Positions 17,366-26,162 of a stretch of DNA of 64,000 nucleotides are shown in pieces. The stretch comes from Eledone cirrhosa (Eukaryota), in the NCBI GenBank assembly GCA_964016885.1, contig OZ024754.1, forward strand, positions 41,106,001 to 41,170,000. Direction: 5' to 3'. The translations under genes were made by a program, and so were the position numbers. Positions within the stretch are counted from its first letter, which is position 1. Each line of letters starts with the position of its first letter. Under the pieces are notes generated by a model. It had not been told where the DNA came from. It worked only from the letters and a program-made list of their open reading frames with translations, and did not search any database.

Positions 17366-17584
17366 GTAAGCTATTCACTTAACCTTTCAAAACTTTTCTT
17401 TGTTAATCCTTTCAGTGATCCTAGGAAATGAGGGAGGAAAACGATTAACAAGATCCCGGACTTCATTTGATTGCCAAGTGGTGTGGAACCAAGGAAACAA
17501 TGTTTCCATTGGTCTTTTCATTGCTAGTACTATCTACTGATCACAACCCCTGGCAGCATCTCTTAAACTGTTATTTCTATATAA

Positions 17585-18110
17585 TATCTGTTTTCCACTG
17601 GAATAGTTATGTTATTGCTATATATCTGTTTTCCACTGGAATAGTTATTATATCTGTTATTGCTATATATGTTTTCCACTGGAATAGTTATATCTGTTAT
17701 TGCTATATATCTGTTTTCCACTGCAATAGTTATATCTGTTATTGCTATATATCTGTTTTCCACTGGAATAGTTATATCTGTTATTGCTATATATCTGTTT
17801 TCCACTACAATAGTTATTATATCTGTTATTGCTATATATCTGTTTTCCACTGGAATAGTTTATATTTGTTATTGCTATATATCTGTTTTCCACTGGAATA
17901 GTTATTATATTTGTTATTGCTATATATCTGTTTTCCACTGCAATAGTTATTATATCTGTTATTGCTATATATCTGTTTTCCACTGGAATAGTTATATCTG
18001 TTATTGCTATATATCTGTTTCCCACCAGAATAGTTATATCTGTTATTTCTATATAATGTTTTTTTTTTGCTGGAATAGTTATTAAATCTGTTATTTCTAT
18101 ATAATATGTT
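17585..18110. repeat. 43-46-bp minisatellite, about 11 copies
   Basis: Unit ATATCTGTTTTCCACTGGAATAGTT(ATT)ATATCTGTTATTGCTAT. Confidence 0.92.
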
Positions 18111-18191
18111 ACCTGTTGAAATGGTTATTATATCAGGTGGTATGGTGCATGTTTCTGAGCTTTTCAGACATGACATCTTTAATTTTGTTAG

Positions 18192-18236
<45 letters not shown>

Positions 18237-18370
18237 CTATTTCAGAGCACCAATTCTAATTTTCAATTTCTGCTTGACCGGCAACTGCTCTGTATAATCA
18301 GTTCCTGATTATTACTAGAATTCTATAAGAATCAAACATTTATGATTTTCAGCAAACAGGTGGAGTACTT

Positions 18371-18415
18371 AGCTTTGATAAGTACCAAAAAGTACGAAAC
18401 ATAGCTCTGTCAGCT
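18371..18415 (+). ncRNA. Type I hammerhead ribozyme, U3-A8 core variant (family A), intronic sense to DCAF5
   Basis: AGCU UUGAUAA GUAC caaaaa GUAC GAAA CA uagcuc UG UC AGCU. All three stems form, the triplet is GUC, and stem I is extended by 18346-18360 pairing with 18424-18438. Confidence 0.75.
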
Positions 18416-18540
18416 TTATCTCCCCTGTTTGCTGAAAATTTAAAGTAAGTGAGACTGTCACTACTCTAAAACAATAGCGTAAGGTCTTCGAAATGCTTTT
18501 AATTAAACATAGTGTATTGCAAAATACACTATATATATAT

Positions 18541-18591
<51 letters not shown>

Positions 18592-18607
18592 TATATATAT
18601 ATATATA

Positions 18608-18910
18608 TGGAGGCACATGGCTTAGTGGTTAGAGCATTGGCCTTGCAATCGAAAGGTTGTGAGTTCAATTCTCGGACCGGGTGATGTGTTAACTCCTTGA
18701 GCAAGACACTTTATTTCACATTGCTCCAGTTTACTCAGCTGTAGAAATGAGATGATAGGGACTGGGGTTCCTATCATTCCACGGCAAAAAAGCACCCAAC
18801 ACTCACTGTAAATGAGGTTGGTGTTAGGAAGGGCATCCAGCTGTAGAAATCAAGCCAGAATCAGTTCCCGTCCCACCTTTGCAAGCAGGGAAAAGTGGAC
18901 GTAAAATGAA
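18608..18910 (+). mobile_element. tRNA-derived CORE-type SINE (family 2) with RTE-derived tail
   Basis: A box TGGCTTAGTGG, B box GAGTTCAATTC, core CCTTGAGCAAGACACT. Other copies at 32790-32935 and 38502-38888. Confidence 0.85.
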
Positions 18911-19043
18911 ATGAAACGAAATATATATATATATACATTTATATATTTTATAAAGAGTCAGGGCCCAATGGCTGAGCTCCTGCCATTTCAACAGCTAGTT
19001 CCAGATTGATATATATATAATGATGATGCTTTTATATTTGTAG

Positions 19044-23479: not shown

Positions 23480-25179
23480 ATATGGAGCCCATTCTTAATT
23501 CCAAGTTCCAATGGAAGCTTAAAAAAAACTTTGAAAATTTCTCAGCCTGAGCGTCCTGTCTACACACACGAGGAATATATTAACCTAGTTCTACGAAGTG
23601 GTCATGTGATGTCACATGACTATACACACCAATCAATGGAGGAAGATCCTCGTATGATGGCTTTTTTTGACTCTTTGGTACAGCGGGAGCTGGAAGGATG
23701 GAGTTCTGAAGATGACTATTCCAATTTCTCTACAAATGATGAGGATGAAGTTTATGAACGGATGGTTCAGGCTCGTGCGGAGCTCCTTGAGATCTCCCCA
23801 CACCCTAGTTCCGACGAAGAAGAAGGAGGTTACAGCCCTTTTACTATTGCATTTGCTAGTGTGATGAGCACGACGGATGCTGACAGATCACAACAGAGCC
23901 GACCATTACGATCATCATCATCCCATTCTTCTCAGAACAACAACAACAACAACAACAGCGGTAATAGTAATAATAAGAAGAGTAATTGTAATGGTGGCGG
24001 TGGTAGTAGTAGTAGTAGTAGTAGTGGTGGTGCCAGTACCAGCAGCAGCAGCAACACCAGCAACACTACTACTACTACTACTACTACGACCACAAATACT
24101 AACACTGCCAGTACAAACATGAGCAACAACAACAGCAATAGCACCACCAGCACCACTACTACCACCACCACCAGTCTTTCTACAAATACTGTAAATTCAA
24201 CATTTTTAAATATGCCGTTAGAAAGAGAGTTTAATCCTGGAAACGTGGATGTTGCGAATGGAAGTACGTCAATGCTCGAAGGTCAACAACCCAGCAACAA
24301 CCGTAAAAGTATTTCCCAGTTGATTGCTCGAAAAAGAAAAGAAAATGCCAACATAATGTTTAATAAAGTGAGACATATGTCTGCTGCGAAGAAACGTGTT
24401 TGTCCGTGGAATCCTTCAAGTTCGGAATCTGACGAGGATGGCAACTACCTAGCGTCTGCTAAACTAAAGAAAATGGTGCCACAGACAAGTGCAGCTAGCA
24501 GCACAATGGCATCATCTACCACTTCATCTGTGGACTTGTGGCACTCACGAAACGGTACCAACTCTCAGCAAAAGCAGAAGGCCTTAGCTGATCTGAAAAA
24601 ATGGAAAGAGCTGCGCCATCAAGTGAACTCTTCAAGTTACCAATTACCAGAGACTAAACTGACTTCCCACACTCCTGCATTGTCTTCTTCTTCTTCTTCC
24701 TCTTCTTCTTCTTCCTCCTCTTCTTCTTCTTCCCCTTCTTCCTCTTCCTCATCGTCGTCTTCATCCTCCTCTACATCCACCTCCTCCTCCTCCTCTTCTT
24801 CCTCTTCCTCGTCCCCGCCCTGCCTACAAGACCGGTCAAAGTCAACCACATCATCAAAGTCACTTGTGTCGGTGGTCAGCAGCTCTGGGTCGGCTGAGAG
24901 CAAAGGTCACCGCGACGAAATGGAGCTGGGGCCATACTTGCACAAACTGGAGAGTCAACCGTGTGCCCTAGGGGACGGCCTGCTCAACAAGAACAACAGC
25001 AAGAACAACAACAGCAAGAACAGCAAGAACAACAACAACAAGAGCAACAAGAGCAGCAGCAGCAGCAACAAGAATGATGATGCGTCTAAATCTGTGAAGA
25101 AGGGAATCAGTGGGAGCAACAGTAGCCGTGTCAGTGTTGCTGGGACAGAGAAAACACAACACACCAACAGTTCACACCC

Positions 25180-25212
<33 letters not shown>

Positions 25213-25558
25213 GCCATCATTAACTACTACTACCACTTCTAATGTTTTCTGTTCTCTTGAAAATAACTACAATAACGATAATCATAACAACAATAACAAC
25301 AACAATAATAATAATGTGAATAATCATGCCATATCCAACATGACCAGTGTTAGTAGTGGTGGTAGTAGTAGTACTACAAGTGCTAGTAATAACATTGCTA
25401 GCAATAGTAGTAGTGGTGGTGGTGGTATTAGGGACAGCTCCACTTTTGAACCTGTTTGGACAGAATTCAAGAGATTCAAACACAGAGTGGAGCGTGCTCG
25501 TCGTAACTACCGGCAACAGAGCCAGTTAGATGTATCTAGTGATGATGATGATGTATGA
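23480..25558 (+). CDS. DCAF5: DCAF5 terminal exon, 692 aa: conserved segment then long low-complexity tail
   Basis: caaccag|ATATGG; IWSPF...YTHEEYINLVL...EDPRMMAFFDSLVQRELEGWSS matches DCAF5; open to TGA at 25556-25558. Confidence 0.93.
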
Positions 25559-25787: not shown

Positions 25788-25820
<33 letters not shown>

Positions 25821-25825
<5 letters not shown>

Positions 25826-26162
25826 TGTATGTATAGTATATTTGTTAATATACTGTGTTTAATTAAAAACATTTTGAACACCATTCACTATGAGTTTAAA
25901 GCAGTGACTGTGTCACTTACTTATTCTCGGCAAAAACTAAGGGGAGTAATCCATCTTCTATAATTCTCGGTGGAAGCGAAGGAGTAAATAATCTTGATAA
26001 CCGCTAACGAGTAAGAAACAGGACTGTCGATTACTCCCCTTCGTTTTTGCTGAGAATAAGTAAGTGACACAGTCACTGCTTTAAACTCACAGCGAATGGT
26101 CTTCAAAATGTTTTTAATTAAACATACAGTATATTATTAAAATATACTATACATACATTCAT
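25821..26162. mobile_element. Foldback element with about 130-bp inverted arms, (TA)n-flanked, hammerhead-bearing (family A)
   Basis: 25821-25951 is the reverse complement of 26029-26162; the right arm is homologous to about 18415-18535. Confidence 0.88.
25989..26033 (+). ncRNA. Type I hammerhead ribozyme, U3-A8 variant (family A), downstream of the DCAF5 stop
   Basis: UAAUC UUGAUAA ccGCU aacg AGUaa GAAA CAG ga CUG UC GAUUA. Stems I and III are good; stem II is weak (3 bp). Confidence 0.62.

Follow-up and report, generated by a model that had tools for sequence, protein, structure and literature searches.

The hammerhead motif in an intron of the Eledone cirrhosa DCAF5 gene is not gene-specific: it belongs to a repeat copy inserted in that intron. 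We read this copy as a solitary 320-bp element of the retrozyme kind lying in (TA)n, likely a passenger there, with a ribozyme that is predicted to be efficient only in tandem transcripts, and put the probability of this reading at about 0.8. The repeat adds a member to the known class of non-LTR retrozymes, and the U3-A8 variant of its core was already known. The window, i.e., the whole stretch of 64,000 nt that was analysed, contains the following features.

17366..19043, + strand: DCAF5 intron of 1678 nt, GT..AG, containing the element (contigs, exon matches)
18192..18234, no strand: left flanking (TA)n, likely the insertion target
18233..18540, + strand: one monomer of the 320-bp non-LTR retrozyme-type repeat, subfamily A (profile positions 1-318)
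18530..18608, no strand: right flanking (TA)n
18346..18438, + strand: type I hammerhead with extended helix I (sequence, folding, Rfam match, covariation)
18346-18360/18424-18438, + strand: outer helix, perfect 15 bp, part of helix I
18371-18374/18412-18415, + strand: stem I, 4 bp, AGCU (sequence)
18375..18381, + strand: core U3-U4-G5-A6-U7-A8-A9 (UUGAUAA; sequence, genome-wide pattern counts)
18382-18385/18392-18395 (18382..18395), + strand: stem II, 4 bp GUAC, G-C closed, with a 6-nt loop
18396-18399, + strand: GAAA (sequence)
18399..18410, + strand: stem III, 3 bp with a 6-nt loop (sequence)
18411..18412, + strand: predicted cleavage site after C17 (18411, GUC; sequence, hammerhead numbering)
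25948..26200, + strand: subfamily B copy, 5′-truncated and tailed, with a decayed stem II and, at 25994, the U3-A8 core
25813..25950, - strand: inverted 3′ piece of the same element adjoining the 25948 copy (Penelope-type 5′ inversion)

A hammerhead on the sense strand of a DCAF5 intron

Three exons, all on the + strand, have DCAF5 as their best PDB match (E 4e-15 to 5e-24), and two runs from related organisms yield contigs in which 17365 is joined to 19044 over GT..AG. Three presumed RNA contig sets of related organisms do not reach the element, which counts neither for nor against its expression. The strand of the exon matches and the joined positions together place the motif in intron 17366-19043 in sense orientation, which bears out what a sequence-only reading had proposed; 632 nt separate the hammerhead from the 3′ splice site. 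The last DCAF5 exon (23537-25558) is long and displays many Ser, Asn and Thr runs. Very high-copy repeats adjoin the element at 18610-18900, where depth is high in all four read runs; we take these, from their appearance, to be tRNA-like SINEs.

The same reading had called the hammerhead apparently intact. Every part that it listed is present where it had been placed, and the core and stems are indeed there, whereas a U at 18402 breaks the palindrome of stem III. Across 18346-18438, we found a conserved core with a 3-8 Watson-Crick pair, the GAAA and an NUH site, together with three helices that show compensatory changes and an open helix I, which also has a 4-bp GGAG/CUCC helix and an internal loop between the 15-bp outer helix and stem I. 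Judged by its sequence, this is a genuine hammerhead for which self-cleavage is predicted. Among the 11 rows that a loose descriptor gave in the 64-kb window, it is the sole motif with 4-bp stems I and II and paired positions 3 and 8. The 106-nt region folds with z = -7.8, and 0 of 200 shuffles were equally stable; this stability is mostly that of the outer helix, and the 51-nt hammerhead core on its own has z = -0.9.

The best Rfam match of the motif is Hammerhead_HH9 (RF02275; 24.8 bits, E 3.5e-4 in a 271-nt scan), with a score below the gathering score of 52 bits and thus outside HH9 membership, and a C3-G8 sister sequence scores 25.1 bits against the same model. The hammerhead emerged from narrow Rfam scans only; a scan of the whole window gave microsatellite-driven miRNA matches and one sRNA among the 150 of its 301 matches that were listed. 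Another hammerhead-like motif, with a canonical C3-G8 core, a hairpin stem II and a palindromic stem III, occurs on the - strand of the window at 48620.

A dispersed 320-bp repeat family

In a DNA search of the genome, with 40 of 2597 candidates scored, the top copies were 97-98% identical to the window copy. A 31-nt core pattern has 304 exact matches genome-wide (142 forward, 162 reverse; reversed control 0), a count outside which diverged copies fall. The repeat unit is 320 bp with 33% GC, and the tandem locus L030 has a period of 320. Solos, tandems and one array of about 19 units make up the family: in the set of 30 top loci, a same-strand neighbour accompanies 10 and an inverted one 13 (6 loci have both), while 13 are solos, and the array (L109:1273-9142; about 8 kb) contains some 19 full retrozyme units along with partial units and two strand switches. 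The window copy is a single monomer between two (TA)n tracts, and its right end, which runs into (TA)n, is approximate.

A low-GC, non-coding unit in the range of 150-450 bp, a type I hammerhead and tandem copies place the family with the non-LTR retrozymes. The loci that we viewed are without an LTR-type layout, a TSD being unreadable inside (TA)n, and the 320-nt circle is predicted to be strongly self-paired (z -4.8). The 5′ ends of the copies are variable, and the 3′ ends are fixed, either at a TA-rich spot or behind a short tail, with (TA)n following; the family therefore matches the architecture of Penelope-like element (PLE) insertions, for which the accessible part of PMC8557442 describes variable 5′ ends, tails and (TA)n. 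The Penelope-type marks present in the family comprise partial tandems, 5′ truncation, 5′ inversion, a 30-40-nt tail and a microsatellite target.

The only related same-strand copy near the intronic solo is the decayed subfamily B copy, 7.6 kb away, which lies 436 nt after the DCAF5 stop codon and keeps the UUGAUAA heptamer at 25994 with most of stem II unpaired. No same-strand subfamily A partner of the intronic copy lies within the 64-kb window. Positions 36935-37084 resemble the 3′ half of the unit weakly by profile (E 0.007) and are possibly an old fragment.

Positions 3 and 8 across three subfamilies

The sequence-only reading had expected positions 3 and 8 not to vary independently among family copies, and the U3-A8 pair survives this test. 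Pattern-matching copies of subfamily A include 2 that differ at position 3 (A3-A8 and C3-A8), 1 that differs at position 8 (U3-G8) and 0 with the C3-G8 double change; three single mutants among about 291 copies amount to ordinary decay. The exact UUGAUAA heptamer is present in about 288 pattern-matching copies, and 14 differ at position 9. A9 is thus mutated in 14 of about 302 copies, versus 3 of about 579 chances for positions 3 and 8 combined (Fisher P 6e-5); this excess may reflect a mutation hotspot, sub-lineages or selection for inactivation.

Using the 25994 copy and a third variant beside it as queries, we found two further subfamilies; A, B and C are mutually 70-79% identical. The subfamily alignment holds 133 copies (135 minus 2 duplicates of one place), in which array copies are not independent. 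U3-A8 is found in 63/66 subfamily A copies, a set that includes two loci fetched for being variant, and in 30/32 subfamily B copies (93/98 in A and B together), versus C3-G8 in 33 of the 35 subfamily C copies, which upholds the earlier claim that U3-A8 is compensatory. Every exception at positions 3 and 8 is a single mutant, and no copy crosses over between U3-A8 and C3-G8. A tree of 46 of the 133 aligned copies, with columns 3 and 8 omitted, splits the three subfamilies with strong support; since it is unrooted, one change at 3/8 suffices, in either direction. The U3-A8 core at 25994 had been offered as independent covariation, a claim that we do not retain, as the two window copies are homologues of each other (73% over 158 nt) and a single change on the tree is enough to account for all three subfamilies. 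Most simply, the 18375 and 25994 copies (subfamilies A and B) would share one 3/8 event, and the real covariation would be that of A and B versus C.

The other ten core positions agree throughout the three subfamilies (10/10), versus 37/78 positions in the nearby helix and 137/173 in the distal flank; against the distal flanks alone, the core conservation is not significant (P about 0.09). Among 24 chosen copies, 94% of cells are paired, versus 27-44% in slid controls, and both partners differ in 9 of the 21 pairs, a count that is made up of few events and that 113 of 500 shuffles also attain; in stem III, no pair of these copies has changed doubly. The closing pair of stem II is a C-A mismatch in most subfamily B copies (e.g., L037 and 25994), G-C in A and A-U in C. 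We also rejected the 15-bp helix as an insertion artefact, as it is found in all three subfamilies and covaries.

Penelope-like elements and other hammerheads of the genome

The U3-A8 core in itself is no surprise, as natural cases have been published and the variant is also displayed by autonomous Penelope elements of this genome. Natural U3-A8 hammerheads are reported, with in vitro activity cited, in the accessible text of Perreault et al. (2011; PMC3088659), and about 1,300 U3-A8 matches in Schistosoma are tied to Cercyon PLEs in that of Cervera and de la Pena (2014; PMC4209133). A literature search of main texts available without subscription turned up neither a non-LTR retrozyme with U3-A8 nor any account of the present 320-bp family.

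A near-complete Neptune-like Penelope element occupies L093:4100-9901 (- strand), with a 938-codon frame in which RVT_1 scores just under the cut-off and GIY-YIG over it and in which the CX2-5CxxC linker is as in Neptune. Its direct repeats carry a U3-A8 hammerhead, and the element ends at (TA)n. The terminus of this element and the retrozyme tail have a few bases in common before (TA)n. The UUGAUAA heptamer is also found in another PLE family of this genome, at 10 loci, and other PLE families have C3-G8. Among 50 loci, chosen mostly for a nearby GIY-YIG match and drawn from 150 scored of 10,597 candidates, none held an autonomous PLE that is homologous in DNA sequence to the 320-bp unit; when 7 PLE proteins were compared by tblastn with 92 retrozyme loci, 4 loci gave matches. 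The one direct junction among them is at L014:817-1121, where a decayed PLE GIY-YIG fragment is joined to an inverted retrozyme piece. We set this junction aside as evidence of an autonomous partner: an old copy that received an insertion is its likelier origin, with a template switch as the alternative.

Further unrelated hammerhead repeat families with C3-G8 cores occur in the genome (L103:8168-9700, L095, L098, L099, L100, L102 and L107), one of which is tandem with a period of about 500 bp. A 21-bp tandem at 28404-28530 of the window has a unit that matches the 3′ region of a PLE family in L072, L095, L107 and L110. For one PLE, the accessible text of PMC11167929 describes the hammerhead as dispensable for insertion in vitro.

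Predicted folding of monomers and tandems

In most family copies, stem III is a perfect 12-nt palindrome, which the U at 18402, in place of the G of most copies, breaks in the window copy. At this position, G makes up 87% of the depth in a DNA-like read run. The palindrome-breaking U is also present in L021 (both tandem units) and L025; being common to these loci, it was rejected as a private change, and it may have propagated among copies. The palindrome duplex is modelled at -21.5 kcal/mol for the family and -8.7 kcal/mol for the window copy.

For the window copy and typical copies alike, the fold favoured by the monomer model is a decoy, with the palindrome paired to the stem I strand and U3-U4-G5. 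The strict monomer hammerhead fold lies 3.4 kcal/mol above the ensemble (P about 0.004; stem I alone P 0.24), a penalty that the family-typical monomer shares, and the decoy is modelled to be the earlier of the two to form as the RNA is transcribed (P 0.92-0.98 while stem I is still incomplete). In the natural tandem L030, the MFE structure is the double hammerhead (P 0.26), which has P 0.10 in L017, P 0.015 in L007 and P 3e-6 in L021, where both units carry the palindrome-breaking U along with other changes. As loop I-loop II contacts are outside the folding model and stem I alone has P 0.24, some activity of monomers is possible.

These models predict a family that cuts in tandem transcripts and protects monomers. 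On these models, the palindromic stems III of two units in a tandem RNA would pair to form a double hammerhead, from which 320-nt monomers would be released, and in a monomer RNA the pairing of the stem I strand and U3-U4-G5 with the palindrome would yield an inactive decoy. By analogy with published retrozymes, the released monomers would be circularised, and a Neptune-like Penelope RT/GIY-YIG protein would copy the circles into (TA)n. Most invertebrate retrozyme hammerheads tested cleave as monomers, according to the accessible text of PMC7229834.

Likely consequences for DCAF5

Ahead of splicing, the DCAF5 intronic copy would be cleaved slowly and with little consequence, because this copy is without a same-strand subfamily partner and its palindrome symmetry is lost. 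On the models, efficient cleavage of DCAF5 pre-mRNA by the solo copy is unlikely; slow monomer cleavage is possible, since tertiary contacts are absent from the models and both loop II and the loop of helix I are similar to those of HH9, and the odds of detectable cleavage in vitro at high Mg2+ are near even. A meaningful effect on the mRNA requires cutting ahead of splicing, and introns cut by hammerheads are reported to be spliced still (as cited in the accessible part of PMC2995048). The available text of bioRxiv 2026.07.22.740005 gives 42-44% of Xenopus retrozyme copies as intronic, yet under-represented for the space.

Were the solo an active monomeric hammerhead, loop I-loop II contacts would have to favour a fold that is modelled 3.4 kcal/mol above the ensemble, after a decoy that forms first, with a stem I of just 4 bp and only 632 nt left to the 3′ splice site. 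We consider the cutting of a measurable share of DCAF5 pre-mRNA at 18411, arising as a side effect of the insertion, unlikely on these grounds, even though the copy is sense-oriented within the intron, is complete in its core positions and its three stems, and has a loop II and helix I internal loop that align with Rfam HH9. In the accessible texts, U3-A8 ribozymes are active in vitro (PMC3088659) and coral and mussel retrozymes cleave as monomers at about 0.8 and 0.1 per min (PMC7229834), but only 1/9 of the predicted Xenopus retrozyme dimers cleaved and 8/9 did not (bioRxiv 2026.07.22.740005). The solo might alternatively be cut in trans, with RNAs from tandem retrozyme loci pairing with the intronic copy as a mixed double hammerhead; the modelled mixed duplex is 7.7 kcal/mol below two monomer folds (10.7 for the family pair and 4.7 for the window copy with itself), and retrozyme RNAs are abundant in mussel and coral (accessible text of PMC7229834). 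We nonetheless rate this as highly improbable, as two stable 15-bp helices would have to exchange strands within the short life of the intron and the energy is that of one hand-built structure of 106-nt fragments. Just as long a shot is the broader proposal of a recently expanded retrozyme lineage that switched from C3-G8 to U3-A8, in which the decoy would be a monomer lock and abundant RNAs would unlock sense intronic solos in trans, cutting DCAF5 among others.

Domestication of the ribozyme as a DCAF5 regulator, akin to the conserved intronic hammerheads of amniotes, we find scarcely credible. What speaks for it is precedent (RECK, CTCL and DTNB; PMC6155905), whereas a domesticated intronic ribozyme would be single-copy and conserved at the orthologous intron across species, and the window copy is high-copy and young, 97-98% identical to dispersed copies. 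It has few differences from the family majority, one of them damaging, and the family is without strand preference on the chromosomes (142 forward, 162 reverse). The reading of the window copy as a likely passenger is the one that we prefer.

Relationship to known systems and implications

Like the non-LTR retrozymes described in the accessible parts of PMC7229834 (Cervera and de la Pena 2020) and bioRxiv 2026.07.22.740005 (Li et al.), the family has a 150-450-bp non-coding unit (here 320 bp), GC under 45-50% (here 33%), a type I hammerhead per unit, forms from monomers to multimers, many intronic copies and a strongly self-paired circle (predicted here, z -4.8). It differs from them, as those parts present them, in the U3-A8 core of two of its three subfamilies, the 12-nt palindromic stem III, and the (TA)n borders and 5′ inversions that are seen directly. 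With the hammerheads of PLE pLTRs, including those of Schistosoma Cercyon (accessible text of PMC4209133), it shares the U3-A8 core, a helix III whose palindrome serves dimer action, copies that are for the most part single and dispersed, inverted pairs at distances of 100-700 bp, and the tail and microsatellite targeting. Unlike the minimal pLTR form in that text, it has stems II and III of canonical size and a long helix I, and unlike the PLEs it has a unit without an ORF, with no homologous autonomous element in 50 loci. The newt/axolotl and ASBVd double hammerheads display dimer-dependent cleavage via an extended helix III, as predicted for the family, in which the palindrome is longer and the monomer would be blocked by a decoy helix, beyond a weak stem III. 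The amniote intronic HH9/HH10 (RECK, CTCL) and the CPEB3 ribozyme are sense-strand and intronic, as is the window copy, but they are single-copy and conserved across lineages, whereas the window copy is a young repeat below the HH9 threshold.

As it stands, the DCAF5 intronic copy is an ordinary transposon copy. The three sister subfamilies offer a natural comparison of C3-G8 with U3-A8 within one scaffold, and descriptors that demand CUGANGA would miss two of the three. The family also displays PLE-style insertion marks in an invertebrate retrozyme, an aspect outside the accessible text of bioRxiv 2026.07.22.740005. If intronic solos are cut, whether in cis or in trans, host pre-mRNAs could be affected by hundreds of such insertions, and if trans unlocking is true, the repeat family would be a genome-wide trans-acting ribozyme layer.
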